64,000 nt of DNA from Escherichia coli. GTDB lineage: Bacteria > Pseudomonadota > Gammaproteobacteria > Enterobacterales > Enterobacteriaceae. Position 1 is the first letter of the stretch; each line of letters begins with the position of its first letter. This document shows, piece after piece, positions 3,186-24,367 of this stretch. The notes under the pieces are model-generated. The model did no database searches, was not told the origin of the DNA, and saw only the letters and a program-made list of their open reading frames with translations. The position numbers and the translations under genes are program-made. The stretch lies in NCBI RefSeq assembly GCF_050920415.1, contig NZ_CP169309.1; one strand, given 5' to 3'.

Positions 3186-3364
3186 TGATGACTCCGGTTA
3201 ACGATGTCAGGTTATTGGCAAAAGGCGTGCCAATATTTTTTATGTTAATAATCAATAATTTGAAAAATGGGCGGAAAGCGTGTTTCCGGTTCGGCGGAAA
3301 AGTGCCTGCCGCAAAAAGCACAACACCGCCCGCAGGCGGTATTGAGACTGATGACAAACGCAAC

Positions 3365-3466: not shown

Positions 3467-3474
3467 ATCCCGCA

Positions 3475-4389: not shown

Positions 4390-4874
4390 GATACTGCTCC
4401 TTGGGATTAATCGTTTTCGTTTCGATACCCTGTAAAAACGACACCTCAGGCGCAAACTTAAAATCACTATGAAAAAAATTTCGCCACGTATTATCCGATG
4501 CCACTTTTAGCTAAAAAAAGCAGAGGTTAAATTCAGATAAAAAGATTATTAGCAATATCTGCCACATGGCCAGGTATCAAAATATGTCTTTATCAATTGC
4601 TTGATATAGTTAAGATTGTCATCAATTAACGCGTTTTCTTCACAATGTACTGATGCCAAAATTTACATTGCGTTGCAAATAGTACACATTTGGCTATTGT
4701 ACCTGTCCTGTCATTTCGTTACATTCCCACGCCATATAGTGATTAAGAATAATCCTATTACCATAAAATATTAATTATCACGCAGAAAAATCATCTTCTC
4801 AGGGACGTATAAGACTGTGCTTTATGTAAAGCACTATCAGGAACCATTTATCCCTTGCTAAGGTAAACTCAACT

Positions 4875-7611: not shown

Positions 7612-8988
7612 TTAGCTGCACATTTCCAGCACCGAATCGAAAATCTCGGCCCCGGCGGAAATGACTTTCAGATTGGCTTCATAAATTTGTTGATAGGTGA
7701 TCAGGTTCACCGCCTCTTCGTCCATGCTGACGCCGCTGACGCTGCTCTGCTGGTTTTGCGCCTCAGAATAGACATTGGACGCAGCGGTCACTTCGGTCTG
7801 GTTTTGCTGAGTGTAAATGCCGATATTGCTGATGATTGACGAGCACGCTTGCCCGACCGTCACGCTGCCGAGGTTGCCTATCTCCAACGGCTCAGTGGAG
7901 ATGTTGATCAGCGCCTGCAGGTTGTCGCTGTTGCCGCTTTCATCCGGCGAACTGGAGAACGCCAGTTCATCGGCGGTGATATCCGGGTTAACGGTCAGCG
8001 GGCCATCGGCATTACTGGCATCGTAAATAAACAGCGGCTCGCCGGGGTTACCGTTGAGATCGTAGCCCTGCGCCAGCTGGTTGTTGACCGCATCGGCAAA
8101 CTGCGACGCCATGCTGTTGATGGTGTCGGTCAGCGGCGTCAGCACGTCGTTTTGATAATCAAAAAGTGCGCCTAATGAACCGCCGGTGTCGGTGGTCATG
8201 GTCGAGGTCGTTCCGGCAAAGGTCAGTGTCATCGTTGGCGTGCCATCGGCGTTGGTTTCCAGCGCAATGGTCGAGCTTTGCTGCCCGCTCACCAGCGGCT
8301 GACCGTTTTGCAGGGTGACGTTGTAGTTGCCCTGGTCGTCGATATTGACCTGCACATCCATCATCCCGCTGAGTTCTTCCACCATCTGGTCGCGGGCATC
8401 GTACAGCGCAGAGGCGTTATCGCCGTTGGCTTCGGCCTGGGCGATTTGCTGGTTATAGCTGGCGATGCCGCTGGTGAGGGTGTTAATTTGCGACACCATC
8501 GCCTGCTGCTGGCTGATGATTTCCGTGCTTTGCGAGTCGATGTAATCGAGCGTGTTATCGATACGCAACGACAGCGCCCCGGCTTCGCTGATCACCTGCT
8601 CGCGCAGGGCAGAATCATCGGGGCTGGTGGTCGCTTCGTTGAGGGCCGCGAAAAAGTTATCGAACCCGCCGCTCAGGCTGCTGTTATCGTCGCTCAATAC
8701 CGCTTCCAGTTGCGTGAGATACCCTTGCTGGGTGTTGTAATAGCCGTAATCGCTGGCGGCATACCACACCTGATTCACCTGATACTGGTTGGAGACGCGA
8801 CGAATGCTGTCGACCTGCACACCGTTTCCGGCGCTGTTCGGCGAACCGCCGCTGGCACCGATGGTGCTGATCTCCGCCACCTGGCGGGTGTAGCCCGTGG
8901 TCATGGCGTTAGCGGTGTTTTGCGCCGTGACGTTCAGCTCCACCTGCGCCGTTGATGCGCCGCTGTAGCCGATGTTAATCATGTCCAT
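7612..8988 (-). CDS. lfgK: Hook-associated protein FlgK-like (HAP1)
   Basis: 458 aa; N-terminus MDMINIGYSGASTAQVELNVTAQNTANAMTTGY… and C-terminal …NLITYQQIYEANLKVI… are typical of FlgK. Confidence 0.85.
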   Translation of the reverse strand: MDMINIGYSGASTAQVELNVTAQNTANAMTTGYTRQVAEISTIGASGGSPNSAGNGVQVDSIRRVSNQYQVNQVWYAASDYGYYNTQQGYLTQLEAVLSDDNSSLSGGFDNFFAALNEATTSPDDSALREQVISEAGALSLRIDNTLDYIDSQSTEIISQQQAMVSQINTLTSGIASYNQQIAQAEANGDNASALYDARDQMVEELSGMMDVQVNIDDQGNYNVTLQNGQPLVSGQQSSTIALETNADGTPTMTLTFAGTTSTMTTDTGGSLGALFDYQNDVLTPLTDTINSMASQFADAVNNQLAQGYDLNGNPGEPLFIYDASNADGPLTVNPDITADELAFSSSPDESGNSDNLQALINISTEPLEIGNLGSVTVGQACSSIISNIGIYTQQNQTEVTAASNVYSEAQNQQSSVSGVSMDEEAVNLITYQQIYEANLKVISAGAEIFDSVLEMCS

Positions 8989-9070
8989 GTTGGATCCTTA
9001 CCGGTAAATCGTGCCGGATAAAAGCGGCGTGAAGTTGGGGATTCTTAAGTGGGAGGGGGTGCGCGCATTG

Positions 9071-9192
9071 CCCCCTCACCCTAACCCTCTCCCTGAGGGA
9101 GAGGGGACCGATCGAGCACGGTATTGAACAGGGTGCCGGTTTTCTCCCTCTCCCTGTGGGAGAGGGCCGGGGTGAGGGCATCAGCGCGCACC
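9071..9192 (+). repeat. Copy A of a ~120-bp composite palindromic intergenic repeat
   Basis: ccccctcaccctaaccctctccctgagggagagggg … ttttctccctctccctgtgggagagggccggggtgagggc; two hairpin modules. Nearly identical to copy B (11346-11470) and inverted copy C (21429-21545). Confidence 0.8.
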
Positions 9193-9197
9193 TCCCC

Positions 9198-9497
9198 TCA
9201 CCTATGCTTCGGCGACAACTGCTTCACAATCATCGCCGCAATCCCTATCCCGTGCTGCTGCGCCAGGGCGTTACACAACTCATCGTCATAAAATCCCTGC
9301 ATCATGCGCACCGAATCGCTGTTAAATGGGTTATCTTTCGAATCAAACAACTCGTTGGTTTTTCGCATCTCTTTGAGCATGTTGCGTAAAAAAATCGCCT
9401 CAAACTGTTCGGCGGCCTGCTTAATATCATTGGCCTGAACCTTCGGCCCCATTAACGCATCGCTGCCGTCAATCCCGCCGCTGGCGTTGACTTTCAT
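9198..9497 (-). CDS. lfgJ: Short FlgJ-like protein (rod-binding domain only; no muramidase domain)
   Basis: 99 aa; …IKQAAEQFEAIFLRNMLKEMRKT… matches the FlgJ N-terminal rod-binding motif. The ORF ends at 9198, so no glucosaminidase domain is encoded. Confidence 0.75.
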   Translation of the reverse strand: MKVNASGGIDGSDALMGPKVQANDIKQAAEQFEAIFLRNMLKEMRKTNELFDSKDNPFNSDSVRMMQGFYDDELCNALAQQHGIGIAAMIVKQLSPKHR

Positions 9498-10612
9498 CAG
9501 ATCACCTCCAGGTCGGCATCCAGCGCGCCCGCTTCATGCAGCGCCTGCAAAATCGACATAATGTCGTCCGGCGTTGCGCCTAAACTGTTCAGCGCATTGA
9601 CCAACGTTTTCAGGCTGCTCGATTCCGGCAAACTCACCACGCCCGGACGGGCATGATTCACCGCGATATTGCTCTGCGGCGTCACCGCCGTGCGCCCGCC
9701 AGCAAAGGCATTCGGCTGGCTGACGTTGCTGGTTTCGTTAATTGAGACGGTCAGGCTGCCGTGCGACACCGCCGCCGCGTGCAGCGCGATGCCATCGCCC
9801 ATCACCACCGTACCGGTACGCGAGTTAAACACCACGCGGGCGCGGATTTTCTCCGCCTGTACCTGCACATCATCCAGTTGCGACATAAACGCCACCCGCG
9901 CGCCGGGGCTGGTGGGCGCACGCACGGTGACGTTGGTGGAACTCTGCGCCGTGGCAATGCCGCCAAACGAGGCGTTGATCGCCGCCGCAATGTTGTTGGC
10001 GTCTTTAAACGACGGACGTTTCAGGTTAAGCGTGATGGTGTCGCCCATCTGAAAATCGCTGGGAATTTCGCGCTCCACCGTCGCGCCATTGGGGATTAAT
10101 CCGGCGGTCGGCGTATTAACCGTTACGCTCGAGCCGCTGGCCCCGGTGGCGTTCATCCCGCCCACCACCACGCTGCCCTGCGCCAGGGCATACACTTCGC
10201 CATCTGCGCCGTGCAACTGGGTCAGCAGCAAGGTGCCGCCGCGAATACTTTTGGCATCGCCAATCGACGAGACGGTGACATCAATGGTCTGCCCGCGCGA
10301 GTACATCGGCGGCAACGTGGCACTCACCGCCACCGCGGCGACGTTTTTCACCTTCGGGTCGATTTTATTTGGCAACTGCACGCCAAACTGGCGCAGCATA
10401 TTGGTGATGGTCTGGTTGGTGAATTTGACCTGGTTTTTATCGCCCGTACCGTCGAGGCCGACCACCAGGCTGTAGCCGACCAGTTGGTTTTCACGCACGC
10501 CCTGTACGTTGACCAGCGACTCCAGCGATTGCGCCAGCGCCACGCCGGGTAGCGCCAGGGTTACGGCTACCATCACCGTTTTTATCCAGTTTTGCATTGC
10601 ACTCTCCGGCAT
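9497..10612 (-). CDS. lfgI: Flagellar P-ring protein FlgI-like
   Basis: 371 aa with signal peptide (…[14 protein letters not shown]…); start ATG overlaps the flgH stop (TAATG coupling). Confidence 0.9.
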
Positions 10613-11277
10613 TAAATCGGGAACAGAGGATGGTTAAACAGCCGGGTCAGCCAGCCTGCGGCGTTGGCGTCACTTAACGCGCCACGTCCGGCATAGGAGA
10701 TACGGGCATCGGCGATCCGCTGGGAAGAAACCGAGTTGTCATTCTGGATATCGTCGGCGCGCACCAGGCCGCTTAAGCGGATGTACTCATCGCCCTGATT
10801 GAGGGTGAGCCATTTCTCGCCGCGAATTTCCAGGATGCCGTTGGGCTGCACCGCATGAACGGAAACGGTGATCTCCCCGCGCAGGCTGTTCTGCTGCTGG
10901 GAGGTGGCGCTGCCGTCAAAGTCGCGGTTGGCGTCGATGGAGCCGGAAAGGTTATTTTTGGTGTGACCAAATACCGTTGGCGCGGTAATATCGACGCTGT
11001 TGCTTTTGCCAAAGTTGGTTTTCGCCTGTTTGCTCGACTGGGTGGATTCTTCGAGGATCACTGTCAGAATATCGCCCACGCGGTAAGCCCGCCGATCGGC
11101 GGTTAGCGACCAGTTGTAGCCCGTTTCAAACAAGCCCCCGGCACGCCCGTCTGCCGGAGGCGGCGCTTCGGTTTTCGGTGGCGCAAAGTATGCGTCGTCT
11201 TTTTTGACCAGAATGGCCTGCGATTCACACCCGCTAAGCAGGGGAAGCAGCGCCACCAGCCAGAGATAATTTTTCAC
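10612..11277 (-). CDS. lfgH: Flagellar L-ring lipoprotein FlgH-like
   Basis: 221 aa; lipoprotein signal [17 protein letters not shown]; conserved FlgH core (…[13 protein letters not shown]…). Confidence 0.9.
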
Positions 11278-11345
11278 GTTCTGCCTGTTTAGTGTTGCAG
11301 GCCACGGGGGTGGCCGGTTGTTTGGTGGGTGCGGAGCTGTTTGTT

Positions 11346-11470
11346 CCCCCTCACCCTAACCCTCTCCCTCAAGGGAGAGGGGACTGACCTGTGCGCGTTG
11401 TTACATTGTGCACCGCTTTTCTCCCTCTCCCTGTGGGAGAGGGCCGGGGTGAGGGCATCAGGCCGCACCG
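11346..11470 (+). repeat. Copy B of the composite palindromic intergenic repeat
   Basis: ccccctcaccctaaccctctccctcaagggagagggg … ttttctccctctccctgtgggagagggccggggtgagggc; lies between the flgH start and flgG stop. Confidence 0.8.
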
Positions 11471-11481
11471 CCCTTAACGCC

Positions 11482-12267
11482 TTACAGCGTCTGACTGATG
11501 TACTGCAACATATCGTCCGCCGCCGAAACCATTTTGGCGTTCATCTCGTACGCGCGTTGCACCGTAATCATCGCCACCATTTCGTTGACGATATCCACGT
11601 TCGAGCCTTCGAGCGCATTGTCCTGCAAGGTGCCAAGCCCATCTTCGCCCGGTACGCCTTCGGTCGGCTGACCGCTGGCGGCGGTTTCCAGATAGAGGTT
11701 GTCGCCCTCGGCGGAAAGCCCCGCCGGGTTGGCGAAGTTCACCAGCGTCAGTTGCCCTAACTCGGTCACGTCGCTGTCGCCGGGTAAGATAGCCGTCACC
11801 GTACCGTCCTCACCAAACGCAACATTCGTCGCCCCCGCCGGAACGTCGATTTCCGGCTGCAATGGCAAGCCCTGCGAGTTGGTTAGCACGCCGTCGGCAT
11901 TCACCTGCAAATTGCCGTCGCGGGTATAGGCGATATCGCCGTTGGCCTTTTGCACCTGCAAAAACCCCTGCCCCATAATGGCGACATTCATCGCGTTGTC
12001 GGTGGTTTCGACGTTGCCTTCGGTAAAGGTTTTCTGAGTGCCGACAATGCGCACGCCGCTACCGAATTGCAGCCCGGTCGGCATGATGTTGTTCTGGTCG
12101 AGCATCGCGCCCGGCGCTTCCTGGGTCTGGTAGAACAGATCCTGAAACATCACCCGGTCGCGCTTGAAGCCGGTGGTGTTAACGTTGGCGATGTTGTTGG
12201 CAATCGCGCTCATTTCAGCATCCTGCGCCGAGAGGCCGGTTTTGCTGATCCATAATGCTGCGTTCAT
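11482..12267 (-). CDS. lfgG: Distal rod protein FlgG-like
   Basis: 261 aa; N-terminal …ALWISKTGLSAQDAEMSAIANNIANVNTTGFKRDR… and C-terminal …NVDIVNEMVAMITVQRAYEMNAK… rod-family motifs. Confidence 0.9.
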   Translation of the reverse strand: MNAALWISKTGLSAQDAEMSAIANNIANVNTTGFKRDRVMFQDLFYQTQEAPGAMLDQNNIMPTGLQFGSGVRIVGTQKTFTEGNVETTDNAMNVAIMGQGFLQVQKANGDIAYTRDGNLQVNADGVLTNSQGLPLQPEIDVPAGATNVAFGEDGTVTAILPGDSDVTELGQLTLVNFANPAGLSAEGDNLYLETAASGQPTEGVPGEDGLGTLQDNALEGSNVDIVNEMVAMITVQRAYEMNAKMVSAADDMLQYISQTL

Positions 12268-12293
12268 GGTGCTTTATTCCCTGATGTCTGTTA

Positions 12294-13031
12294 TCACGAG
12301 CCGCGCAATAAGCGGTTGCCCGCGTCGCTGATATCTTCGGCAGTTTTCATCATCTTGATCTGCGCTTCAAACTGGCGATTCATGGCGATGGACGACATCA
12401 TTTCGCTCACCGCCGAGACGTTGCTGCCTTCGAGAAAACCGCCGCTGACTTTGATGTTTTCATCGCGCTGGGCCGGAATGCCGTCGCTAGTCACCAGCAT
12501 CCCTTCAGGATTTTTCGCCAGGTTAGCGACAGGGATATCCACCAGCTTCAGGCGGTCGATATCCATCGTGGCGGTCACGTCGCCGTCATCGGGCGTCACC
12601 GAGAGCGTGCCGTCGCTGCCAAAAGAGGCGATGGCGTTCGGCGGCAGAATGATCGGGCCGTTATCCCCCAGCACCAGATTGCCGTCGATGGTCAGTTGCC
12701 CCTGATCGTTCTGCTGAATATTGCCGTTGCGGGTATAGACTTCGTTGCCGTTTTTATCCTGCACCGCAATGTAACCCGCCCCCTGAATCGCCACGTCCAG
12801 CGGGCGTTCGGTTTTCTCCGCCACACCCGTGCTGTCGTTCACGCCGCTGGCCCCTTCCTGCGCCATATAGCGCGTGTCGAAGCCGCCACCTTTCACCTTG
12901 TCGTTGGTCGCCATCGCCATATCGGCGCGAAAACCGTTGGTGTTGACGTTCGCCAGGTTGTTGGCGCTAATCTGCTGCTCATACAACGTCTGCGAAGCCC
13001 CGCTCAGGGCGGTATAAATCAGGCGATCCAT
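12294..13031 (-). CDS. lfgF: Proximal rod protein FlgF-like
   Basis: 245 aa; rod-family N- and C-terminal motifs (…NNLANVNTNGFRAD…, …NVSAVSEMMSSIAMNRQFEAQ…). Confidence 0.9.
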   Translation of the reverse strand: MDRLIYTALSGASQTLYEQQISANNLANVNTNGFRADMAMATNDKVKGGGFDTRYMAQEGASGVNDSTGVAEKTERPLDVAIQGAGYIAVQDKNGNEVYTRNGNIQQNDQGQLTIDGNLVLGDNGPIILPPNAIASFGSDGTLSVTPDDGDVTATMDIDRLKLVDIPVANLAKNPEGMLVTSDGIPAQRDENIKVSGGFLEGSNVSAVSEMMSSIAMNRQFEAQIKMMKTAEDISDAGNRLLRGS

Positions 13032-14233
13032 TACATTGCCTGGAACAGCGCGTCATCGAGCTGCGTGCTGGTGGCGATAACTTTGGTGTTGGCCTGATAG
13101 TTACGCTGGGCGGTCATCAGGTTAACCAGTTCGCTGGTGATATCGACGTTAGAGCTCTCAAGCGCTCCCGACGTGAGCGTGCCGCAGGTGCCGGAGCCGG
13201 GAACACCAATCAGTGGCGTGCCGGATTCCCCGGTTTGTACCCACGCGGTGCCGCTTACGGCTTGTAGGCCATCATCGTTAGGGAACGTCGCCAGCACTAC
13301 CTGCCCCTGCAACATGCGCTCGCCGTTGCTGTAGGTGGCGTAAACTTTGCCGTCGTCATCGACCTGCACACCGTTCTGAGTGGCAGAGGCGTAGCCATCG
13401 GCGGCGTTGGTGGTAACCGAGAAGTCAGAGCCGTATTGCGTACAGGTGGAGTAATCGACGGTCAAATCGATGGGCGCGGCGGCGTCGGTCTGAAACTCAA
13501 TGGTCTGCGGGGTGGTGGGCGAAGTCAGTTTTCCGGTATTCGGGTCGAAGGTTAAGGTCGTCGCCGGAACACCGGTCTGCTGCTGACCGTCGAAGGTGTA
13601 CTGCACTTCCCAGGTGTTATCGCTGGTTTTGGTGAAGTACTGGCATACCGAGTGTTCGTTACCTAATGAGTCATACACCGTGGTGGTGTAACTGTCGGTG
13701 TACGAACTGCTGTTGGTCGGATCGAACGGCACGGTAGTGCGGTCGATAGCGTCGTCGCTGGCATCGAGGTTGGCGGTAAAGGTCAGGCTGCTGCTGGCCT
13801 GCGCCGGGATATTGCCGGTTTTGATCTGGATATCCGTCACCGTACCGGTTTGCAAAGTGCCGCTGTCATCGACCGGATAGCCCTGCAAATAAGCGCCCGA
13901 GGCGTTGACGATATAGCCGTCTTTGTCCGTTTCAAACGATCCGGCGCGGGTATAAGAGATGTTGCCCGCGCTGTCGCACATCACAAAAAAGCCGTCGTCG
14001 TTAATCGCCAGATCCAGCGCATTACCGGTGGAGACCAGCGAACCGCCGCGCGAAATACTTTGCGCGGTGCCCGCCACGCTGACGCCCATTGCCTGGCTTC
14101 CGGCATACATGGCTGAAAACTGGGTAGTCATCGACTTATACCCCACCGTTCCGGCGTTAGCGATGTTGTTACTGATCCCGTCCAGCTGTTCGTTAACGGC
14201 ATTCAGCCCCGTTGCGGCAATTTCATAACTCAT
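13031..14233 (-). CDS. lfgE: Flagellar hook protein FlgE-like
   Basis: 400 aa; MSYEIAATGLNAVNEQLDGISNNIANAGTVGYK… and C-terminal …SNVDITSELVNLMTAQRNYQANTKVI…. Confidence 0.9.
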   Translation of the reverse strand: MSYEIAATGLNAVNEQLDGISNNIANAGTVGYKSMTTQFSAMYAGSQAMGVSVAGTAQSISRGGSLVSTGNALDLAINDDGFFVMCDSAGNISYTRAGSFETDKDGYIVNASGAYLQGYPVDDSGTLQTGTVTDIQIKTGNIPAQASSSLTFTANLDASDDAIDRTTVPFDPTNSSSYTDSYTTTVYDSLGNEHSVCQYFTKTSDNTWEVQYTFDGQQQTGVPATTLTFDPNTGKLTSPTTPQTIEFQTDAAAPIDLTVDYSTCTQYGSDFSVTTNAADGYASATQNGVQVDDDGKVYATYSNGERMLQGQVVLATFPNDDGLQAVSGTAWVQTGESGTPLIGVPGSGTCGTLTSGALESSNVDITSELVNLMTAQRNYQANTKVIATSTQLDDALFQAM

Positions 14234-14256
14234 TGTTTCTTCCTGTTAATTGATTC

Positions 14257-14970
14257 TTACGCCACATCACTGTCGGCATCGGGTACGCCAAACTGGCTAA
14301 TCATGGTGAACGGCACTTCGCCCACACCTGCAACGTTGAGCACCGGAGAGCTGCCGTCGAGCGGGATACGTACATCCTCCACTTCGCCGGAGACTTCAAT
14401 CGGTACCTCTTCTTCCCCGGTGTTGGTCACCACCGAAACGTCGTAATCACCCGGCGGGATGCCGTAATCCGCCGGATTAATCGAGAAATCAACCTGGCCT
14501 GGTCCAACCGACGAACTCCCTTCCGGGATCAGCGAGACGGTGTAGTCATCGCCCGCGGCATCGGTAAAGTGGAGTTCGGCGGTGGTACAGGCGTCGTCCA
14601 GTGTGGCGCGACCGTTAATGGTCTGGTCACTCACCTGCAAGGCGGTGGTCTGCACCATAATGTCGTCGCCCACCAGGTTGCCGAGCGCCATCACCTGAAT
14701 GTTGCTCATCAGCACCGCGTTGGTATTGGCCTGCACGCTCATCTCTTCCATCATCGCCACCTGCGCCATCGACGAAAGCTGGTCGATATATTCGGTGGCA
14801 TCGGTCGGGTCGGTCGGGTCCTGGTTTTGGATCTCGGCGACAAACAGCGTCAGAAAGGTATCAACGGGCGAGCTATCGCTGCTGCTTGTCGTGTCGCTGG
14901 CCGCCACAGTGTTGCTTTCCGCCGTGGCGGTCGGCTGCGGTGATTGCGCATTCAGCGCCAGGGTATTCAT
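14257..14970 (-). CDS. lfgD: Hook capping/assembly protein FlgD-like
   Basis: 237 aa; N-terminal …DTFLTLFVAEIQNQDPTDP… FlgD motif. Confidence 0.85.
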   Translation of the reverse strand: MNTLALNAQSPQPTATAESNTVAASDTTSSSDSSPVDTFLTLFVAEIQNQDPTDPTDATEYIDQLSSMAQVAMMEEMSVQANTNAVLMSNIQVMALGNLVGDDIMVQTTALQVSDQTINGRATLDDACTTAELHFTDAAGDDYTVSLIPEGSSSVGPGQVDFSINPADYGIPPGDYDVSVVTNTGEEEVPIEVSGEVEDVRIPLDGSSPVLNVAGVGEVPFTMISQFGVPDADSDVA

Positions 14971-15401
14971 CAGGCTTCTCCCAGTTTCAGCAGGCTTTGC
15001 TGCATACTTTTCACGTTGTTGAGCACATCGACGTTAGTTTCAAAATCGCGCGAAGCCGACATCATGTCCGCCATCTGTTCCACCACGTTGACATCGGGAT
15101 ACCAGACATCACCGTTGGCATCCGCCAGCGGCGAATGCGGTTCATAGCGTTTCACCGCCCCGCCGGTTTGCAGCACGTCCTGCACCTGCACGCTGGCACC
15201 GTCAATGGCATGGCGATGCGTTCCCGCCAGCAAGCTGTGGTGATAGACCGCCGCAAACACCGGGCTGCGCGCTTTATACGCCTGCGCCTCGCTGCCAGCG
15301 GGCGCATTGGCATTTGCCAGGTTACTGGCAACGGTATTCAGACGTAGCGTTTGCGCCGTCATCGCCGAGCCGGAAATCTGATAGATATCAGTAAATGACA
15401 T
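14970..15401 (-). CDS. lfgC: Proximal rod protein FlgC-like
   Basis: 143 aa; …LRLNTVASNLANANAP… and …NVDVLNNVKSMQQSLLKL…; reading frame intact. Confidence 0.9.
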   Translation of the reverse strand: MSFTDIYQISGSAMTAQTLRLNTVASNLANANAPAGSEAQAYKARSPVFAAVYHHSLLAGTHRHAIDGASVQVQDVLQTGGAVKRYEPHSPLADANGDVWYPDVNVVEQMADMMSASRDFETNVDVLNNVKSMQQSLLKLGEA

Positions 15402-15403
15402 GC

Positions 15404-15769
15404 TTATTTCCCTTCAATGGCCTCTCTGATGCCGCTGATTTGCAGATTCAGAAAGGTCAGACTGCTTTGATAATCCATACTATTTTGTGAAAACCGCGCC
15501 TGTTCGCTGTTCAGTTCCACGGTGTTACCATCTTCCGATGGCTGCATCGGTACGCGATACTGGACATCCACCGCCGCGTTATTTGCCCGTTGCATCTCCC
15601 TGGCAAAATCAATATCTTTAGCCTTGAAATTTGGCGTATCGACATTCGCCAGATTCGCAGTCAGTAGCTCGGTCCTCTCAAGACGTAACTTCACTGCCTG
15701 CGGATGTACTCCCAATGCTTGTTGAAAACTGATCCCCATTTCTTGCGCCACTCCCGCTTCAATCCGCAT
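15404..15769 (-). CDS. lfgB: Proximal rod protein FlgB-like
   Basis: …RTELLTANLANVDTPNFKAKDIDF… FlgB motif. Start uncertain: the longest ORF begins at 15769; an internal ATG at 15739 has a GGGAG upstream. Confidence 0.8.
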   Translation of the reverse strand: MRIEAGVAQEMGISFQQALGVHPQAVKLRLERTELLTANLANVDTPNFKAKDIDFAREMQRANNAAVDVQYRVPMQPSEDGNTVELNSEQARFSQNSMDYQSSLTFLNLQISGIREAIEGK

Positions 15770-15799
15770 ACGCTAAGCAATCGCTGTGCCAATTTTTAA

Positions 15800-16558
15800 G
15801 TGACTGATGAGAAAGGGTTTATGAGGTTTCAATTTTGCAGGCGGAAGTTGTATTTCCTCCTGGCGCTGGCCTTACCGGGCTACGCCGCCGTCCATCCCGT
15901 GCAACATAGCGCGCGGGAACAAATCAACGCCCAGGTGCTGAATGCCGCGAGCCAGCAGATTGAATCGCTGGCGCAACAGCGGCAGTGGCATGACTATCGC
16001 TACACCTTTAAGGTCTACATTCCCTCGCAGATTGCGACCGCCGCGCCCTGCGCTACGGCCCCCGGCGTCACGCTGACGTCGCCTGCGGAAATCGCTCTCA
16101 ACCGGATGAACTTCACCGTCAGTTGCCCGCAAAGCTGGCAGATGAACGTTGCGGTGCGCCCGGATGTTCTGGTGCCGGTGGTGATGGCGAAGTCACTGGT
16201 TGCCCGCGATACGCCGCTCACGGCAAATGATGTGGAGCTGAAGCCCTACAACGTCAGCGCCCAGCGGCGGGATGTGCTGATGGATCTCAATGAAGCGATT
16301 GGTTTAAGCAGCAAACATGCCCTGCAACCAGGCAGGCCGCTTACCAAAGAAGAACTGGTTTCGCCAGTGCTGATCGAGCGCGATCAGCCGGTGATGATTG
16401 TTTACCAGAGCGCGGGGATCACCGCCTCGATGCCCGGCGTGGCGCTGAAAAATGGTCGCAAAGGGGAAATGGTGAAAGTACGTAACGCCAGCAGCCAGCG
16501 GGTCATTAGCGCGATGGTGGCCGAAAGCGGCGTGGTGACAACGGTAAGCGCGGAGTAA
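15800..16558 (+). CDS. lfgA: P-ring assembly chaperone FlgA-like
   Basis: 252 aa with signal peptide (…LLALALPGYAAVHP…), divergent from flgB. Alternative start at 15821. Confidence 0.8.
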   Translation: MTDEKGFMRFQFCRRKLYFLLALALPGYAAVHPVQHSAREQINAQVLNAASQQIESLAQQRQWHDYRYTFKVYIPSQIATAAPCATAPGVTLTSPAEIALNRMNFTVSCPQSWQMNVAVRPDVLVPVVMAKSLVARDTPLTANDVELKPYNVSAQRRDVLMDLNEAIGLSSKHALQPGRPLTKEELVSPVLIERDQPVMIVYQSAGITASMPGVALKNGRKGEMVKVRNASSQRVISAMVAESGVVTTVSAE

Positions 16559-16704
16559 TTTGCTTCGATACCGCGTAGCATATGTATGACTATCTCCCAA
16601 TATTATGACTTTCTGACAAATTTCATCGTGTCTTTTGGATAATTATTGAGCACTCAATCACTACTGTTTAAATATCCAGATGGTAACTATTTCATCTGGG
16701 TCAA

Positions 16705-18171
16705 ATGAGTGATACTGTATCACCAATAAGACCTATGGGGGATGCTATGTCTGAATTTGAATTACTCGTGAAAGATCTTCTTTTAAAATCAGAAGAAGAC
16801 GAGAAAAAGCGACAAGAAAAAGATCGAGAATTAATTTCAAAGGTCCTTGAAATCTATGATCAAAAATATGTTGCAGAACTCTTACGAAAACTAGGAAAAA
16901 ATGAATGGAGCAGAGAAACACTTAACCGTTGGATAAATGGTAAGTGCAATCCTAAGCAATTAACTTCTGCGGAGGAAACTTTACTCCGCAAGATGCTTCC
17001 AGAACCTCCTGAACATCATCCTAACTACACATTTCGTTTTATTGATTTATTCGCAGGGATTGGTGGTATTCGTAAAGGTTTCGAAAACATTGGTGGACAG
17101 TGTGTTTTTACCAGCGAATGGAATAAAGAAGCGGTAAGAACCTACAAAGCTAATTGGTTTAATGATGAACTAAATCATAAATTTAATCTTGATATACGAG
17201 AAGTCACTTTAAGTGATAGAGATGATGTTTCCGAAGTAGAAGCCTATAATCATATAGACAAAAATATTCCAGATCATGATGTCCTTCTGGCCGGTTTTCC
17301 ATGTCAGCCCTTTAGTCTGGCTGGGGTAAGCAAGAAAAACTCTCTGGGGCGTGCACATGGTTTTGAATGTGAGGCACAAGGAACACTATTTTTTGATGTC
17401 GCTCGGATTATTAAATCAAAAAAACCAGCTATTTTTGTGCTTGAGAATGTGAAAAACCTTAAAAGTCATGATAAAGGTAAGACTTTTAAAGTCATCATGG
17501 AAACACTCGATGAATTAGGATATGAAGTCGCCGATGCTGGTGTTACTGGCTCAGATGATCCCAAAATTATAGATGGAAAACATTTTTTACCCCAACATCG
17601 TGAGCGTATAGTGTTGGTAGGATTTCGTAGAGATCTGAATATTCACAAGGATTTCACGTTACGAAACATTAACCGCTTTTACCCTCAAAACAGGCCAACA
17701 TTTGGTGAATTATTAGATCATGATGTTGACGATAAATATATTTTGACTCCAAGGTTATGGGAATATCTTTACAATTATGCAAAAAAACATGCAGCAAAAG
17801 GCAATGGGTTTGGTTTTGGTTTAGTGGATCCTAAAAATCCAGATAGTATCGCAAGGACTCTGTCTGCTCGTTATCATAAAGATGGCTCTGAAATATTGAT
17901 TGATCGTGGCTGGGATAAGGCTGTCGGTGAAATTGACTTTAGTAATCCAGCGAATCAAGAGCATCGTCCAAGAAGACTGACACCTCACGAATGTGCCAGG
18001 CTAATGGGTTTTGAAAAACCAGGGGGAAGACCTTTTAGAATACCTGTATCGGATACACAAGCCTATAGACAATTTGGGAACTCAGTTGTTGTTCCAGTAT
18101 TTGAAGCTGTAGCAAGATTACTAGAACCATATATACAAAAGGCAGTCAATATGCATATTATTAACGATTAA
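16705..18171 (+). CDS. DNA (cytosine-5)-methyltransferase, Dcm/M.EcoRII-like (predicted CCWGG specificity)
   Basis: C5-MTase motifs read directly: [11 protein letters not shown] (motif I), [11 protein letters not shown] (motif IV), ENVKNL (motif VI), [10 protein letters not shown] (motif X). Overall layout closely parallels E. coli Dcm as I recall it. AT-rich gene. Confidence 0.9.
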
Positions 18172-18193
18172 TAATAATTAATTTTCACTATTG

Positions 18194-18216
18194 TGAGGCC
18201 TTTTTATTAAAGGCCT
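18194..18216. terminator. Hairpin between the convergent methyltransferase and endonuclease genes (candidate bidirectional terminator)
   Basis: gaggccttt-ttatt-aaaggcctc: 9-bp perfect stem with 5-nt loop in an AT-rich spacer. Confidence 0.6.
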
Positions 18217-18257
18217 CTAAATATATAATCATGAGTTTTTACAAGTATGTTTTTATA

Positions 18258-19463
18258 TTATACAAAATCTTCATAAAGCGTTATTAACTGTGTAATAAAA
18301 CCATCTAATGTTAATATTTCCTCCCTGATTTCCTCCGGGTATTTTTTATGAAGAGGGGAAGGTACAACCAAGGTGACACCTTCAGCTCTCATTTCGTTAA
18401 ATTGAGCAACAGAGACACCCTCTTGCAAGGTAAACAAATATATCTTGTTGATTTTATTTGCTTCATTAAGCGCCTGTCGCCACCGATCCTTACATGTTGT
18501 TTTTACAGCAAGCATACGGAGTTTTTCTCTTGGAAAGTGATCATCATGGTAAGCTGCCGCTGATGGGAAAAGAAAATCGGGTTTCTTTTTTCCTTCAGTA
18601 ATACATTGAGTAGCAAAATGATGCAGTCCATGCTCAATAAAAATTTGCTCAAGATGTAGCTCCAGTGATTTCCCGGCTCGAGATTTTCTTCTATTACTAA
18701 CAGAGTTAGCCATAGCTATAAAATCATCTACAGAACCAAATCCTTGACGGATGATGTCCAGTACGTGAATTTCTTCAACCATTAGAAAGAGATCATATTC
18801 AATACGGCGGCGTTCTAAAAGTTGGTCATCTGGACTGGTTACGCCTGTTGGGTAATAACCTGCCGCATATTGGATAATATCTAAGCCAGAAGGAAAACTA
18901 TGTTTCCAGCTTTCCGGAATAACATATTCCTTTTGAGAGATTTTTGGCCTTGATGCGAGTACACCAAGTATTTCACTGGCAGGCCCAAACATTAAAGTTC
19001 CTGGAATGATCTCCCCAACAGCTGATTCCAGTACATCCTCTTCTTCTGGGCTTACACAAACCCATACATCAACACTTTTGCTGTCTCTCCCAGGCTCATG
19101 TTCAAACGCAAGCACAGACAAAGCACCTGTATTTTCCGGATCTTGTAGGGGACTGCCAGCCCCCCACCGAGTGATACGTTTTTCATTTCTTGTTTGCCCG
19201 AAATACTTATTATTGTAGTAAATAGCGCGAACCTCACTGTCTACACATTCATGAGAGGAATAAGTTGCGCGCAATAAAACCGAAGGATTTTTTTCTGACG
19301 TATGATCTATAGATGGGAAAAGTTCACCGACGATACCGGAAGGGATATATACCCCCACTTGATGCCCTCCTGTTGCACCAGTGTCGTTTGCTGAAAGACG
19401 TTTGATATAGAGATAATTGTTACCACCGACCTTATCAAGCAGCCAATCTTGTAATCCTGACAT
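18258..19463 (-). CDS. Type II restriction endonuclease, EcoRII-like
   Basis: 401 aa, convergent with the Dcm-like MTase. N-terminal …YIKRLSANDTGATGGHQVGVYIP… and overall length match my recollection of R.EcoRII (~400 aa, two-domain). Not verified by alignment. Confidence 0.75.
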   Translation of the reverse strand: MSGLQDWLLDKVGGNNYLYIKRLSANDTGATGGHQVGVYIPSGIVGELFPSIDHTSEKNPSVLLRATYSSHECVDSEVRAIYYNNKYFGQTRNEKRITRWGAGSPLQDPENTGALSVLAFEHEPGRDSKSVDVWVCVSPEEEDVLESAVGEIIPGTLMFGPASEILGVLASRPKISQKEYVIPESWKHSFPSGLDIIQYAAGYYPTGVTSPDDQLLERRRIEYDLFLMVEEIHVLDIIRQGFGSVDDFIAMANSVSNRRKSRAGKSLELHLEQIFIEHGLHHFATQCITEGKKKPDFLFPSAAAYHDDHFPREKLRMLAVKTTCKDRWRQALNEANKINKIYLFTLQEGVSVAQFNEMRAEGVTLVVPSPLHKKYPEEIREEILTLDGFITQLITLYEDFV

Positions 19464-19633
19464 AAGACATCCTTATTTTTGCATAGTATCCGATTCAGAT
19501 TTTTCCACATATCCATCAGAACGACCAGAACCAACATATCTGAACAAAAAGTAAATATGCGATAACGATTAAAGTTTTGCCGCCTGTTAACCGCTTTACC
19601 GGAGTAACCACCCAATACCGAGACGAGGTTGCG

Positions 19634-19912
19634 ATGAAAATCACCCCGACGATGCCAGGCAATCGCCCGACAGCCACAACGGCAGGCTCCAGCCAGCCGC
19701 GTAAAAGTACGGCGACCACCACCACGACGCTGAGTGCCGACGACATTACCCAGGCGGGATTGCAGTCTGCCCAGCAAACGCTGAACGACCAGCAAGAGAG
19801 CGATATCGACAGCGATAAAGTGGCGCAAATGCAGGCGATGCTGGCGTCCGGCAGCCTGCAAGTGGACACCGAACAGTTAGCCAGCGACATGCTGAGTTTT
19901 TTCCAGAACTAA
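19634..19912 (+). CDS. lfgM: Anti-sigma-28 factor FlgM-like
   Basis: Start at internal Met (MKITPTMPGN…), 92 aa; Thr/Ser-rich N-terminus and C-terminal …MQAMLASGSLQVDTEQLASDM… typical of FlgM. Confidence 0.8.
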   Translation: MKITPTMPGNRPTATTAGSSQPRKSTATTTTTLSADDITQAGLQSAQQTLNDQQESDIDSDKVAQMQAMLASGSLQVDTEQLASDMLSFFQN

Positions 19913-19924
19913 GAGGCCGATGAA

Positions 19925-20353
19925 GTGAGTATCCGGTTACAACAGGTGAAGGCGTTGTTGCAGGGCATTCGTGACGATGACGCGCTGTACGATTCCCTGC
20001 GCGAACTTCTCCAGCGTCAGCGGATCTGCATGATTCGCCGCGCCAGTGAAGAGTTGCTGGCGGTAAACGACGAGATAACGCAGCACTATGAGCAGTTGCA
20101 TGGACATAGCCATCAGCGCCATAGCCTGCTGAAAATGCTCGGTGTTAGCGTCAATCGTGACGGTCTGGCGCAGGTGTTTGCCTGGCTTCCGGCGGTACAA
20201 AAAGCGGCAGCACAACAGTTGTGGCAACGCCTGGAGCAAAAAACGGAACGCTGCAAAGCCTATAACGATAAAAACGGCGAGCTGTTGATTCGTCAGTATG
20301 AATTTATTCAGTCTTTTTTAGGCAGCGAAGCGGATTTTCTGTATCAGGAATAA
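19925..20353 (+). CDS. lfgN: Flagellar chaperone FlgN-like
   Basis: 142 aa helical protein directly downstream of flgM; GTG start; FlgN-like composition and position. Confidence 0.7.
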   Translation: MSIRLQQVKALLQGIRDDDALYDSLRELLQRQRICMIRRASEELLAVNDEITQHYEQLHGHSHQRHSLLKMLGVSVNRDGLAQVFAWLPAVQKAAAQQLWQRLEQKTERCKAYNDKNGELLIRQYEFIQSFLGSEADFLYQE

Positions 20354-20440
20354 CGCGAATACCTTCCCCATAGCGGAAACGGATTTTCCGCCTGATTTCC
20401 AATCCTTTGTTTTTGATTAAAAAAATTCCCGGCACGCTTA

Positions 20441-21409
20441 TTGCACATCCTGCACAGCATTAAAGACTGGAAGCCACCTATGAGTTTTATTGAATGTTAC
20501 GAACCGGAATATGCGCGCAATTTTATGGCGCAATATCCCGATTCGCCTTTATACGTCCGCAAGGTGTGGAAGAATGAGATTCGCCAGAGCCTGGCATTGA
20601 CCGATATTGCCAGTTGCAAAGCAGTGCTCAACAATGCCAGGGCCTTTGAATTACAGCTTACCTATCGCCCTGTGGAAGAAAATGCCGCAGCGCTATCTGC
20701 GCGCGATGCGATAGTAAACCAGATAATTTTGAGCACCCTCACGCTCCCGGATTTAACCCCAGAGCTTTCACTGTATGCCGTCGGGATTTTGCTCTCCCGC
20801 GCCAGTAAAATGCCGGGCAGAGACGGCGACACTCTCGCCCGGCTGACAGCACTGCCGCAGGCGCTGGCCGATCACGCACAAAAAGGCACGTTACAGGCAC
20901 AGTTCGCACAGCTACCGCCTGTGCCACAGCTGGCGCGCCAACTGGTGACGCTGCTCGGGAGTTTTGCGTTTGACTGGTCGATTCTGCCGAAAAGCCCGCG
21001 CAAAGCCTCACTGCCGTTGCAGGTTACCTTGCTGACGCTGCACGACGCCAACAGCGAAGCCCTGTTGCAGCAGCAGCTTCAGACACAGTGGCAAACTACC
21101 TGGCAACAGCATTTTGCCACCGCGCCGTGGATGATGCGTAACTGGCTAATTTACCGGGTTTATCACGATGTGATTGGCCAGGCAGACGGGGCGGATTATT
21201 TCCCGCTGGTGTGCGATTTTTACCTCATCCGCACGTTAATCAGTTTATGGACGCTGGATGATTCACCGCTGCGGCAGGAGGATATTTTCGCCCTCTTCGC
21301 GGTGTTTGAACGCTGGCGAACCAGTGAAAATGCCGTGCTGATTCGCCAGCAAATTCAGTCATTATGTGCCGCCGACCCGCTGCTTTCAGCGTTTTCGTTG
21401 CTGACGTGA
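20441..21409 (+). CDS. Hypothetical protein (GC-typical), function unknown
   Basis: 322-aa ORF downstream of flgN (alternative start 20480, MSFIECYEP…); no motif I can assign. Confidence 0.5.
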   Translation: MHILHSIKDWKPPMSFIECYEPEYARNFMAQYPDSPLYVRKVWKNEIRQSLALTDIASCKAVLNNARAFELQLTYRPVEENAAALSARDAIVNQIILSTLTLPDLTPELSLYAVGILLSRASKMPGRDGDTLARLTALPQALADHAQKGTLQAQFAQLPPVPQLARQLVTLLGSFAFDWSILPKSPRKASLPLQVTLLTLHDANSEALLQQQLQTQWQTTWQQHFATAPWMMRNWLIYRVYHDVIGQADGADYFPLVCDFYLIRTLISLWTLDDSPLRQEDIFALFAVFERWRTSENAVLIRQQIQSLCAADPLLSAFSLLT

Positions 21410-21428
21410 GTCGCTCTGTGCGCGCTTT

Positions 21429-21545
21429 GCCCTCACCCCGGCCCTCTCCCACAGGGAGAGGGAGAAACCCTGCGCCCAATTCAGCACCGCGCTCGATCGG
21501 TCCCCTCGCCCCTTCGGGGAGAGGGTTAGGGTGAGGGACATCAGC
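21429..21545 (-). repeat. Copy C (inverted) of the composite palindromic intergenic repeat
   Basis: gccctcaccccggccctctcccacagggagagggagaaa … ccttcggggagagggttagggtgaggg; reverse complement aligns with copies A and B. Confidence 0.8.
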
Positions 21546-21596
21546 GCGCGCATTCAGCACCTCCATCACATTCACCCACTAACTCACCCAAACACC

Positions 21597-24041
21597 ATGC
21601 CAACACCAAGCATCATCAAAACACTCGCCACCCACCGCGAAAAACCGTTCGTCAGCGTCGTCACGCCAACATGGAACCGCGGCGCATTCCTCCCGTACCT
21701 GCTCTATATGTACCGCTATCAGGACTACCCGGCAGACCGCCGCGAACTGGTCATCCTTGACGACTCGCCGCAAAGCCATCAACACATCATCGACCGCCTG
21801 ACCAATGGCACGCCGGAAGCCTTTAACATCCGCTACATCCATCACCCGGAAAAACTGCCGCTGGGAAAAAAACGCAATATGCTCAACGAACTGGCGAGCG
21901 GCGAATATATCCTCTGCATGGATGACGACGACTACTACCCGGCAGATAAAATCTCTTACACCATCGCCATGATGCAAAAACACCGGGCGCTGATCTCCGG
22001 TTCCGACCAGATCCCCATCTGGTACAGCCATATCAACCGCATCTTTCAAAGCCGCAGCTTTGGCCCGCGTAACATCCTCAACGGCACCTTTTGTTATCAC
22101 CGTAACTACCTGAAAAAGCACCGTTACAATGACGATTGCAATTTAGGCGAAGAGAAAAGTTTCACCGACAATTTCAGCGTAAACCCGCTGCAACTGCCCG
22201 GCGAGCGCACGATTTTGTGTATTTCGCATAGCCACAACACCTTTGATAAAGACTTTATTCTCGGGGCCAGCACGCCAGTAAACGCGGCGCTTACGGATAT
22301 CGTCACCGATCCGCTGCTCCGCAATGCTTATCTGAGTCTGCATAACGCCACGCATCACCAGGGGATCAACCATCAGGCGATCTATCAGATCGTTCTGCTG
22401 AATCTGGATAAACGCCCGGATCGTTTACGGCAGATCCGTGAAGAGCTGGCATTGCTGCATATTCCGCCTGAAAAAATTACCCGCCTTGCCGCCTGTGAAG
22501 ATGAAAACGGTCAACGGGGCCGCCGCCTGTCGCACTTGCAGGCGCTACGCCTGGCGCAACAGCACGGCTGGCAAAACTATCTGCTGCTGGAAGATGACGC
22601 GGTTATTCTCAAGCAGGAGAAACATATTCAGGTGCTGAACACGCTGCTGGCGAGCCTGGCGAAAATTCCCTGGCAGGTGATGATCCTCGGAGGCGAAATT
22701 TCGCAAGGAACAATGCTAAAAAGCCTGCCGGGGCTGGTGCACGCGCAGGACTGCCGCAAAGTGTGCGCTTATCTGGTGAACAGCCGGTACTACCCACAAC
22801 TGGCGCAGCAGATGAGTAACGATGAGCACTCGCTGGAAGACGGCTGGCAGCCACTGCTGCGTGCCGACAAATGGCTGGCCTGTTACCCGAGCCTTAGTTA
22901 TCAGCGACCGGGCTTTAGCGATATCGAGAAAAAAGCGACTGATAACATTAACCACTACTTCAATAAGTTACCCGTAGCCACCAAGCCATCTACATTACCT
23001 ATCGCCGACACCATCGGCTTTTTAATGGAAACCTCATTCCACTACGCGCTCTATCGCCCAATCATCACCGCTCTACAGGCGCAGGGGCAGAGCTGCACGC
23101 TGGTGATCAACGACCGCGTGTTTAAACCGTTTCTGGATGAAATGCTGGAGACGCTAAAAACCATCGACGATCCGCAGCTCAAAGGTATGCGCTTGTCTGA
23201 GATGCAGGCACACGGTCAGCGGGTGAAATGCCTGGTCAGCCCCTACCACACGCCCGCGCTCAATGGCCTGGCAGCGGTGAACATCCGCGCTATGTACGGC
23301 TTAGCCAAAGAAACGTGGAACCACGCCGACTGGAACCGTTTTTATCAGCGCATTTTGTGTTATAGCCACTACAGTCAGCAGGCGCTGGCGCATTTCGGCA
23401 GCGCAAAAGTGGTCGGCAATCCACGCTTCGACGCCTGGCATAACGGCACGTTCGACCGTGCGTTGCCGGAAAATATCCAACCAGATTACCGTAAACCTAC
23501 GGTGCTCTACGCCCCAACATTTGGCGCATTAAGCTCCCTGCCCCACTGGGCAGAAAAATTGGGCCGCTTAAGCGGTGATGTGAACCTGATTTGCAAACTG
23601 CACCACGGTACCTGCTCGCGCCCGGAAGAAGCCGCATCGCTGACCCTGGCACGCAGGCATTTAAAGCAGAGCACCGACTCCGCCCGTCACACGCTGGCGA
23701 TGCTGGCAAAAGCCGATTACGTGCTCACCGATAACAGCGGCTTTATTTTCGATGCTATCCACGTTGATAAGCGGGTGATCCTGCTCGACTTTCCGGGCAT
23801 GACGGAACTGCTCGACGGTGAGAAAAGTTATTCCACACCGGAGAGCGCCGACCAGCGAATCCGCGAAATATTACCGGTGGCTCATGATATGGCTGAGCTG
23901 CGTTACTTATTGTCAGAGGCGTTTGACTGGGGGGCGGTACAGGCGCGGCTTACGGAGATTCGCCATCACTATTGTGACGCGTTTATGGATGGCAAGGCGG
24001 GAGAACGGGCGGCGATGGTGGTTGTGGAGGCATTGGGGTAA
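21597..24041 (+). CDS. Large multidomain glycosyltransferase (GT2-like N-terminus, GT25-like centre, TagB/TagF-like C-terminus); candidate flagellin-modification enzyme
   Basis: N-terminus …VSVVTPTWNRGAFLPYLL…ILDDSP… (GT-A fold); central …LLNLDKRPDRL…LLEDDAVI… (GT25-like); C-terminus …YAPTFG…KLHH…VLTDNSGFIFDA… resembling CDP-glycerol glycerophosphotransferases. Start taken at ATG 21597; the ORF extends back to 21531 across repeat C. Confidence 0.65.
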   Translation: MPTPSIIKTLATHREKPFVSVVTPTWNRGAFLPYLLYMYRYQDYPADRRELVILDDSPQSHQHIIDRLTNGTPEAFNIRYIHHPEKLPLGKKRNMLNELASGEYILCMDDDDYYPADKISYTIAMMQKHRALISGSDQIPIWYSHINRIFQSRSFGPRNILNGTFCYHRNYLKKHRYNDDCNLGEEKSFTDNFSVNPLQLPGERTILCISHSHNTFDKDFILGASTPVNAALTDIVTDPLLRNAYLSLHNATHHQGINHQAIYQIVLLNLDKRPDRLRQIREELALLHIPPEKITRLAACEDENGQRGRRLSHLQALRLAQQHGWQNYLLLEDDAVILKQEKHIQVLNTLLASLAKIPWQVMILGGEISQGTMLKSLPGLVHAQDCRKVCAYLVNSRYYPQLAQQMSNDEHSLEDGWQPLLRADKWLACYPSLSYQRPGFSDIEKKATDNINHYFNKLPVATKPSTLPIADTIGFLMETSFHYALYRPIITALQAQGQSCTLVINDRVFKPFLDEMLETLKTIDDPQLKGMRLSEMQAHGQRVKCLVSPYHTPALNGLAAVNIRAMYGLAKETWNHADWNRFYQRILCYSHYSQQALAHFGSAKVVGNPRFDAWHNGTFDRALPENIQPDYRKPTVLYAPTFGALSSLPHWAEKLGRLSGDVNLICKLHHGTCSRPEEAASLTLARRHLKQSTDSARHTLAMLAKADYVLTDNSGFIFDAIHVDKRVILLDFPGMTELLDGEKSYSTPESADQRIREILPVAHDMAELRYLLSEAFDWGAVQARLTEIRHHYCDAFMDGKAGERAAMVVVEALG

Positions 24042-24049
24042 ACCGCAGA

Positions 24050-24152
<103 letters not shown>

Positions 24153-24367
24153 AACAGCGCACTTATCTACCCTTCGATTTTAAATACATCTCTTTATGGC
24201 TGGTGAATCGGTAAAGTCGTAGATTGTGGGGGAGCGATCTTTATGAATTCTGAAAAAACCCTGAATCTTGCTAAACATATTGCTTATCATAAATATAGGT
24301 TACACACTATAAAAATTACTGCGTAATTTAACATCTTGCCTAAAAATGATAGAGCGTAAACGATAAT

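Follow-up and report, generated by a model that had tools for sequence, protein, structure and literature searches.

By its sequence, each of three composite repeats of about 135-142 nucleotides (nt) in a 64,000-nt stretch of Escherichia coli DNA (contig NZ_CP169309.1; hereafter the window) is an inverted pair of elements of a known E. coli family, variously called BoxC, PIT, TM_ECO and HPG1/HPG2. The repeats, referred to here as copies A, B and C, lie within 12.5 kb of the Flag-2 lateral flagellar gene cluster, and copies A and B stand in gaps between its lfg genes. In other strains the same gaps are filled by unrelated palindromes, by the same element turned round, or by almost nothing. It is therefore likely, in our judgment, that the repeats are non-coding, structure-forming passengers which can be interchanged with other repeats, and not a control element purpose-built for the flagellum. 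The initial annotation of the window had described a two-hairpin repeat resembling small enterobacterial mosaic repeats, without naming a family, and had proposed that copies A and B partition or attenuate a flagellar mRNA.

Identity of the repeats

The name of the family emerged from two papers retrieved by a full-text literature search with motif strings, Holder et al. 2015 (PMC4666352) and Kaplan et al. 2016 (PMC5100583). The name BoxC came first, followed by PIT (potential intrastrand triplex) from Hoyne and Maher, TM_ECO from Holder et al. (PMC4666352) and HPG1/HPG2 from Kaplan et al. (PMC5100583). A family known since the 1990s has been re-described three times (as BoxC, PIT and TM_ECO/HPG), and new copies of it are routine.

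The copies in the window are this already known repeat, in a known paired configuration, because every testable defining feature of the BoxC family was found in them. The first is a core of three blocks, CCCTC(T/G)CCC(C), a short loop, and GGG(G)AGAGGG, followed by TTA (type A) or CCG/TCG (type B) and then GGGTGAGGG. Every copy contains two such modules of the form CCCTC(T/G)CCC-loop-GGGAGAGGG-NNN-GGGTGAGGG on opposite strands, arranged as a type-A module (..GGGAGAGGGTTAGGGTGAGGG), a spacer of about 40 nt and a type-B module (..GGGCCGGGGTGAGGG). Six instances of the core pattern GGGNGAGGGNNNGGGTGAGGG are present in the window, two in each copy and on opposite strands, versus 0.01 expected from dinucleotide shuffles. 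All three type-B modules are identical at 34/34 bases to TM_ECO #1/#4 of strain MG1655, and chance similarity is ruled out by these exact matches together with the motif count. The table of Holder et al. lists 23 copies in MG1655, with a TTA loop in type A and a CCG loop in type B; two modules are inverted at five sites in that strain, and always as one type A with one type B (PMC4666352). The window copies fit this pairing, TTA and CCG standing on opposite strands in all three.

The BLASTN count of occurrences that the initial annotation had recommended was run with copy A. It detected the family in 5096 of the 5426 complete E. coli genomes, with six places per genome as the median; nearly all matched places (30,004 of 30,033) are chromosomal. 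Three of the six places in a genome like the parent of the window fall inside this 12.5 kb. The flanks are variable, as expected of BoxC: among the alleles of sites A and B are some with REP/BIME, an inverted and a duplicated form, and a remnant. Sequences identical to these have been reported to form an intrastrand triplex or a G-quadruplex in vitro (PMC4666352, PMC5100583). No Rfam family covers the elements either at the gathering threshold or at E<=1, where just sub-threshold chance matches appeared.

Reading the window stretches confirmed all three repeats where they had been noted, and a repeat finder independently recovered A and B as a direct pair and A/C and B/C as inverted pairs, in agreement with the orientations first assigned. 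The locations hold, and the units are slightly longer than was described once the terminal inverted repeats GGTGCGCGC and GCGCGCACC are counted. In a three-way alignment, no base varies within the modules or at a few positions next to them, and the arms of the elements are nearly invariant, whereas the central spacer of copy B is unlike that of A and C. Copies A and B had been called near-identical; this is true of their modules, but overall their identity is 85%, with different spacers. Copy A and inverted copy C are 88-89% identical, spacer included. Relative to local transcription, all three copies have one common orientation.

Genomic setting and strain variation

The genes around the repeats are the lfg genes of the lateral flagellar cluster Flag-2, which adjoins dinB/yafP; the primary flgB-L operon is a different one. 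With E. coli MFDS1022581 the window shares 99.96-99.97% identity, and the annotation in RefSeq of a 99.97%-identical genome was used to place the genes (Table 1). On the minus strand the order is lfgG, copy B, lfgH, lfgI, lfgJ, copy A and lfgK; copy C is located at the other side of the cluster, between two plus-strand genes, in what De Maayer et al. termed variable region 1. Thus, the assignment of A and B to the lfgK/lfgJ and lfgH/lfgG junctions was correct, while their supposed place inside an flgB-L gene string was not, since the cluster is Flag-2 and copy A is probably outside the operon (see below). The same annotation has no gene over any of the copies, all of which are intergenic. Coding sequence, the outcome that would have overturned the initial reading, was looked for and rejected, as there are no annotated genes and the slots are filled by unrelated sequence in other strains. 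Two mechanically called open reading frames (ORFs; 11329-11760 on the plus strand and 21240-21575 on the minus strand) were likewise rejected, being antisense to or running across real genes.

Sites A and B were compared among the approximately 1250 complete E. coli genomes that have the lfgJ/lfgK flanks and are Flag-2-positive. Junction-specific searches found the window allele of site A in only 2 genomes, and the element in the opposite orientation, flipped between its GGTGCGCGC termini, in 30. Four E. coli genomes that were sampled have a REP pair or an expanded BIME in the exact slot, and REP/BIME also fills it in 2 further loci labelled Escherichia or Citrobacter; the segment replaced runs from the last lfgJ codon to just short of CTTAAGAAT. 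In E. whittamii (L014) the first 23 nt of the element alone are left, and in a locus labelled Pseudocitrobacter faecalis (L015) the outer arms have turned into a perfect palindrome. Site B has a BoxC pair in 193 genomes, and one REP-like palindrome, a shortened one, or two of them in the other genomes sampled; one BoxC allele (L006; E. coli 23AR1183, 186-483) contains an internal partial duplication. Site C is found in 742 genomes, despite about 15% divergence of the flanking genes. REP/BIME elements are probably what most strains have in these two slots; MFDS1022581 and N96 have the alleles of the window. The population evidence, which is more informative than any other line followed here, therefore makes A and B minority alleles, in slots that are interchangeable between repeat families and in an orientation that is not fixed.

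Two loci titled Pseudocitrobacter vendiensis and P. faecalis (L013 and L015) encode lfg proteins 94-100% identical to those of the window, with BoxC pairs at the matching junctions. This likeness suggests that Flag-2 was recently acquired by horizontal transfer, or else that the assemblies are mislabelled or contaminated. Ordinary REP/BIME elements, some of which score as naRNA4 and ES036 in Rfam, are present in the window at 3356-3481, 24041-24159, 32718-32798 and 42627-42726, flanking the Flag-2 cluster or elsewhere; both repeat families therefore coexist in the region.

The derived alleles L006, L015 and L014 all fit palindrome-driven slippage or template switching. An alternative reading is that the elements act on DNA and are mainly generators of variability: their G-rich and C-rich blocks would form an intrastrand triplex, a G-quadruplex or a cruciform during replication or transcription, and the stalled forks would lead to slippage, deletion, inversion and recombination. 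Triplex formation and switching between G-quadruplex and hairpin have been reported in vitro for exactly these sequences, in a family with variable flanks (PMC4666352, PMC5100583). The single strands are predicted to fold as DNA at -36 to -52 kcal/mol (z = -4.9 to -7.7), and the inversion at site A, the duplication at site B, the 23-nt remnant and the perfected palindrome are the kinds of allele to be expected. On the other hand, the triplex went undetected by published in vivo footprinting, and the variability may be a by-product and not a function. Moreover, the instability is not specific to BoxC, because REP/BIME alleles in the same slots are also variable in length. On balance, we hold DNA-level action to be a tentative possibility, and rather an unlikely one.

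The same alleles bear on whether the composite is mobile in the manner of a MITE, a miniature transposable element with inverted repeats. A uniform size of about 135 nt, 9-nt terminal inverted repeats (GGTGCGCGC/GCGCGCACC), either orientation at one site and dispersal over the genome would all suit such a unit. Nevertheless, inspection of filled, alternative and remnant alleles revealed no target-site duplication at any of the three sites, and the segment exchanged at site A extends into the last codon of lfgJ, which is more readily reconciled with homologous recombination replacing an allele than with a precise insertion. The spacers differ among copies. The pairs in MG1655 are both head-to-head and tail-to-tail with 16-59-nt spacing, unlike a fixed MITE, and no association with mobile elements has been reported for the family (PMC4666352). 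A MITE-type origin thus appears very improbable.

A putative promoter beside copy A and the lfg spacers of other genera

A scan of reference genomes for LfgI yielded 74 loci, in which lfgG, lfgH, lfgJ and lfgK were placed by tblastn and the spacers extracted. The lfgJ-lfgK spacer contains a conserved motif, TTAAGAA-N11-13-(G)CCGCT(T/C)TTA, with fixed spacing. In the window it reads TTAAGAA-N12-GCCGCTTTT, and both sequence and spacing are kept in Citrobacter, Enterobacter, Rahnella, Leminorella and even Aquincola. The motif resembles the sigma-28 consensus, TAAAGTTT-N11-GCCGATAA; related motifs lie upstream of lfgM (~19570-19600, plus strand) and lafA (~4430-4462, minus strand). We infer that it is a putative lateral sigma-28 promoter of lfgKL, which suggests, as far as sequence can tell, that lfgKL forms a separate late (class 3) unit. 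Copy A would then probably stand at an operon boundary, at the end of the lfgB-J unit and 8 nt upstream of the -35 element of the lfgK promoter; we place it outside the operon because it is sited between the lfgJ stop codon and this conserved sigma-28-like promoter. The annotation context changes accordingly, to a Flag-2 cluster in which lfgK probably has a sigma-28-type promoter of its own.

The motif begins 0-17 nt past the lfgJ stop codon in taxa other than Escherichia, and 122-150 nt past it in Escherichia alleles with REP/BIME or BoxC. At the equivalent of site A, these other genera have no hairpin between the stop codon and the promoter, just the 0-17 nt. The lfgG-lfgH spacer is different. 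It measures 50-100 nt in Citrobacter, Enterobacter, Leminorella, Rahnella and relatives, where it nearly always holds one GC-rich hairpin, whose sequence differs by taxon and is unrelated to BoxC (14/15 with z below -2). In distant Flag-2-like loci (Rosenbergiella, Tatumella, Pseudomonas and betaproteobacteria) it is 0-17 nt long and has no hairpin. A small GC hairpin between copy B and the lfgH ribosome-binding site in the window, GGCCACGGGGGTGGCC, recurs in Escherichia sp. E1V33, in an allele of the BoxC type, and is perhaps the original hairpin of the lfgG/lfgH slot.

Folding and possible action on RNA

On the mRNA-sense strand, with Watson-Crick pairing only, the predicted RNA folding energies of the whole units are -99.6 (A), -80.1 (B) and -89.0 (C) kcal/mol, with z-scores against shuffles of -8.7, -6.1 and -7.2. 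The strong stem-loops anticipated in the transcripts are borne out by these predictions. The best fold, however, is one long hairpin in which the type-A module pairs with the type-B module; the two-hairpin form first described, with two local 9-bp hairpins, is an alternative, and in this model it is the local hairpins that would form first during transcription. An intrinsic terminator on the mRNA strand was rejected for want of a U-tract after the stems: a scan of 8900-11700 for a hairpin plus T-run found none on the minus (mRNA) strand at A or B, and the sequence past the stem of copy C is ATTCAGCACC.

Such folds invite the view that the elements divide lfg mRNA into portions that differ in stability, or bring about partial termination, and thereby govern the proportions in which the rod/hook (lfgB-G), ring (lfgH-J) and hook-associated (lfgK-L) proteins are made, with REP, BIME and BoxC as interchangeable cassettes. 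From the stop codon of lfgJ to the start of copy A is a distance of 5 nt. A strong palindrome (REP, BIME or BoxC pair) is present at both slots in every Escherichia allele examined, except for the E. whittamii lfgJ/lfgK remnant. The hairpins in the lfgG-lfgH spacer of other genera point the same way, as do the mRNA-stabilizing and transcription-attenuating effects of REP/BIME in the reports cited in PMC2267715. This view is weakened by the rarity of the alleles (2 + 30 genomes at site A and 193 at site B), by the occurrence of the element in both orientations and of REP/BIME in the slots, and by the lack of a hairpin at site A in other genera. The distant Flag-2-like loci with short lfgG-lfgH spacers (11-17 nt) also do without one, and the hairpins of other genera may be each species' own REP-type passengers. 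In addition, no U-tract follows the stems, and PIT elements had no promoter or terminator activity in reporter tests, as the study of Hoyne & Maher 2002 is cited in PMC4666352. The mRNA partitions or attenuators proposed in the initial annotation are consequently doubtful, and we consider RNA-level control of this kind unlikely.

A stronger form of the idea would be that a strong RNA stem-loop is needed in the lfgG/lfgH gap and, within Escherichia, in the lfgJ/lfgK gap as well; REP, BIME and BoxC would be interchangeable cassettes that determine how stable each mRNA segment is, or that shield the class-2 transcript of lfgB-J from the lfgKL unit driven by sigma-28. This seems quite improbable. 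If true, it would provide the first demonstrated cellular function for the BoxC family, and the orientation flips and cassette swaps between strains would tune the stoichiometry of lateral flagella.

Probable passenger repeats in permissive gaps

The reading that we prefer is that BoxC pairs are passengers lodged in the few permissive gaps of a tightly packed Flag-2 cluster, where they would have replaced, or been replaced by, REP/BIME palindromes. The exchange would most likely proceed by recombination of whole intergenic alleles together with local copying, the latter being proposed because copy A resembles copy C, spacer included, and because half of the places in the parent-like genome are clustered here. 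Any effect on lfg expression would be of the kind common to very stable stem-loops: the structure would hinder 3'-to-5' decay of the segment upstream and might impede read-through to some extent. The pairs may play a part in mRNA stability, and the BoxC stem-loop would in this respect be functionally equivalent to the REP/BIME it replaced and not a specific flagellar regulator. The palindromic DNA would at the same time make for an unstable site, as the inversion, internal duplication and near-complete deletion alleles illustrate; TM_ECO sites have been found unusually variable between strains (PMC4666352). A literature search for later functional work on BoxC/PIT found none.

Several observations weigh against the passenger reading. 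The near-constant presence of an unrelated hairpin in the lfgG-lfgH spacer of related genera hints that a stem-loop is selected in that gap, in which case the E. coli repeats may do a real job. The shared orientation of the three copies relative to transcription has a chance probability of 1 in 4. Six modules in 12.5 kb represent a strong local enrichment, for which passenger status alone offers no explanation; and no target-site duplication was seen.

Whichever reading holds, two slots of one operon cluster that carry, by strain, a BoxC pair either way round, a REP, a multi-REP BIME or almost nothing amount to a natural experiment. The allelic series is ready-made, isogenic-like material for asking whether BoxC acts on RNA, as a decay barrier or a block to read-through, or solely destabilizes DNA.

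Features of the window

Table 1. Positions of the composite repeats, their modules and the adjoining lfg features in the window (gene positions from the RefSeq annotation of the 99.97%-identical genome)
Feature	Position	Strand	Remarks
Composite repeat A	9058-9192	none	Inverted BoxC pair bounded by GGTGCGCGC (9058-9066) and GCGCGCACC (9184-9192); between lfgJ stop codon (9198-9200, minus strand) and putative lfgK promoter
Copy A, type-A module	9072-9105	-	CCCTCTCCCTCAGGGAGAGGGTTAGGGTGAGGGG; 33/34 bases as MG1655 TM_ECO #17
Copy A, type-B module	9146-9179	+	CCCTCTCCCTGTGGGAGAGGGCCGGGGTGAGGGC; 34/34 bases as MG1655 TM_ECO #1/#4
Composite repeat B	11328-11469	none	Inverted BoxC pair; differing central spacer; weaker termini GGTGCGG / CCGCACC; between lfgG stop codon (11482-11484) and lfgH start (11277), both minus strand
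Copy B, type-A module	11347-11381	-	
Copy B, type-B module	11423-11456	+	Exact TM_ECO #1/#4 match
Composite repeat C	21417-21552		Inverted on + strand relative to A and B; between hypothetical/lysine-methylase-like gene (ends 21409) and glycosyltransferase gene (starts 21597), variable region 1 of Flag-2
Copy C, type-B module	21429-21462	-	Exact TM_ECO #1/#4 match
Copy C, type-A module	21503-21538	+	'A mm' variant with CCCTCGCCCC
Putative sigma-28 (LafS)-type lfgK promoter	9020-9049	-	CTTAAGAAT-N11/12-GCCGCTTTT; 8 nt beyond the end of copy A
Small GC hairpin	11300-11315	none	GGCCACGGGGGTGGCC; between copy B and lfgH ribosome-binding site
lfgG	11482-12267	-	
lfgH	10612-11277	-	
lfgJ	9198-9497	-	Annotated as 'rod-binding protein'
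lfgK	7612-8988	-	

Other features of the window were noted in passing. Within the cluster, a Dcm-like cytosine methyltransferase gene (16705-18171, plus strand) and a type II restriction endonuclease gene (18258-19463, minus strand) lie between lfgA and lfgM; EcoRII/Dcm cargo has been described in 21 Escherichia Flag-2 loci (De Maayer et al. 2020). Inside lfgL, at about 7327-7335, the window is ~93-102 nt shorter than the 99.97%-identical NZ_CP169399.1, in frame and with a flanking 9-nt overlap. Further along, Rfam recognizes group II intron domains on the minus strand in the region 49911-51727 (RF00029 at 49911-49986 and RF01999 at 51610-51727), and the adjacent ORFs between them (49988-50605 and 50548-51504) resemble an intron-encoded protein that has been split. 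At 54026-55666 a 539-nt unit is repeated in tandem, in three copies that are 88-92% identical; the array starts in the 5' end of a 739-amino-acid ORF (51943-54162, minus strand) and runs upstream of it. Local repeats also connect 47377-47683 with 49408-49603 and 51830-51893.

Comparison with known systems

Rho-independent terminators share with the window elements a GC-rich stem-loop after a stop codon, but the window elements lack a U-tract, and their stem, with about 60 paired positions, is far longer. REP (PU) sequences and BIMEs are closer, as short GC-rich intergenic palindromes that often form inverted pairs and that occupy exactly the two lfg slots in other sampled strains; being reported mRNA stabilizers or attenuators, they are also the most plausible model for any RNA-level effect of the window copies. 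For REPs close to a stop codon, an effect through ribosome stalling and tmRNA has been described. Their sequence is nonetheless unrelated to that of the window copies. The GCCGGATG...CATCCGGC core is missing from the three copies, and membership of REP/BIME was rejected in the absence of the ~35-40-nt palindrome GCC(G/T)GATG...CATC(C/A)GGC, which often follows GTAG. REPs have a mobilizing enzyme family, the RAYT/TnpA_REP transposases, and we know of none for BoxC. Bachellier and colleagues are said to have described, in 1997, boxC insertions in polymorphic intergenic regions containing BIMEs. RSA and boxC count as separate families in surveys of the palindromic repeats of enterobacteria. The RSA repeat of E. 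coli K-12 (150/151 bp, 6 copies) is similar in length and low in copy number, and has an entry of its own beside BoxC in the K-12 annotation (table in PMC5172473).

With BoxC/PIT/TM_ECO itself the window copies share the identical core sequence, with exact 34-nt matches and both types A and B, as well as a strictly intergenic position, inverted A+B pairing, presence in nearly all E. coli genomes and strain-variable flanks. Nothing essential is different. Compared with the BoxC elements of MG1655, three pairs are clustered in 12.5 kb of one gene cluster, and the pair additionally bears GGTGCGCGC inverted termini. The outward-facing arrangement, with CCCTCACCC / GGGTGAGGG outside, is common to just one of the five MG1655 pairs, lldD-trmL, in which the spacer is different. 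The observations added here, namely the clustering of three pairs in Flag-2, the REP/BoxC swaps at identical slots, the inverted allele of site A and the position of copy A beside a putative sigma-28 promoter, would not surprise a specialist in a family of this kind.

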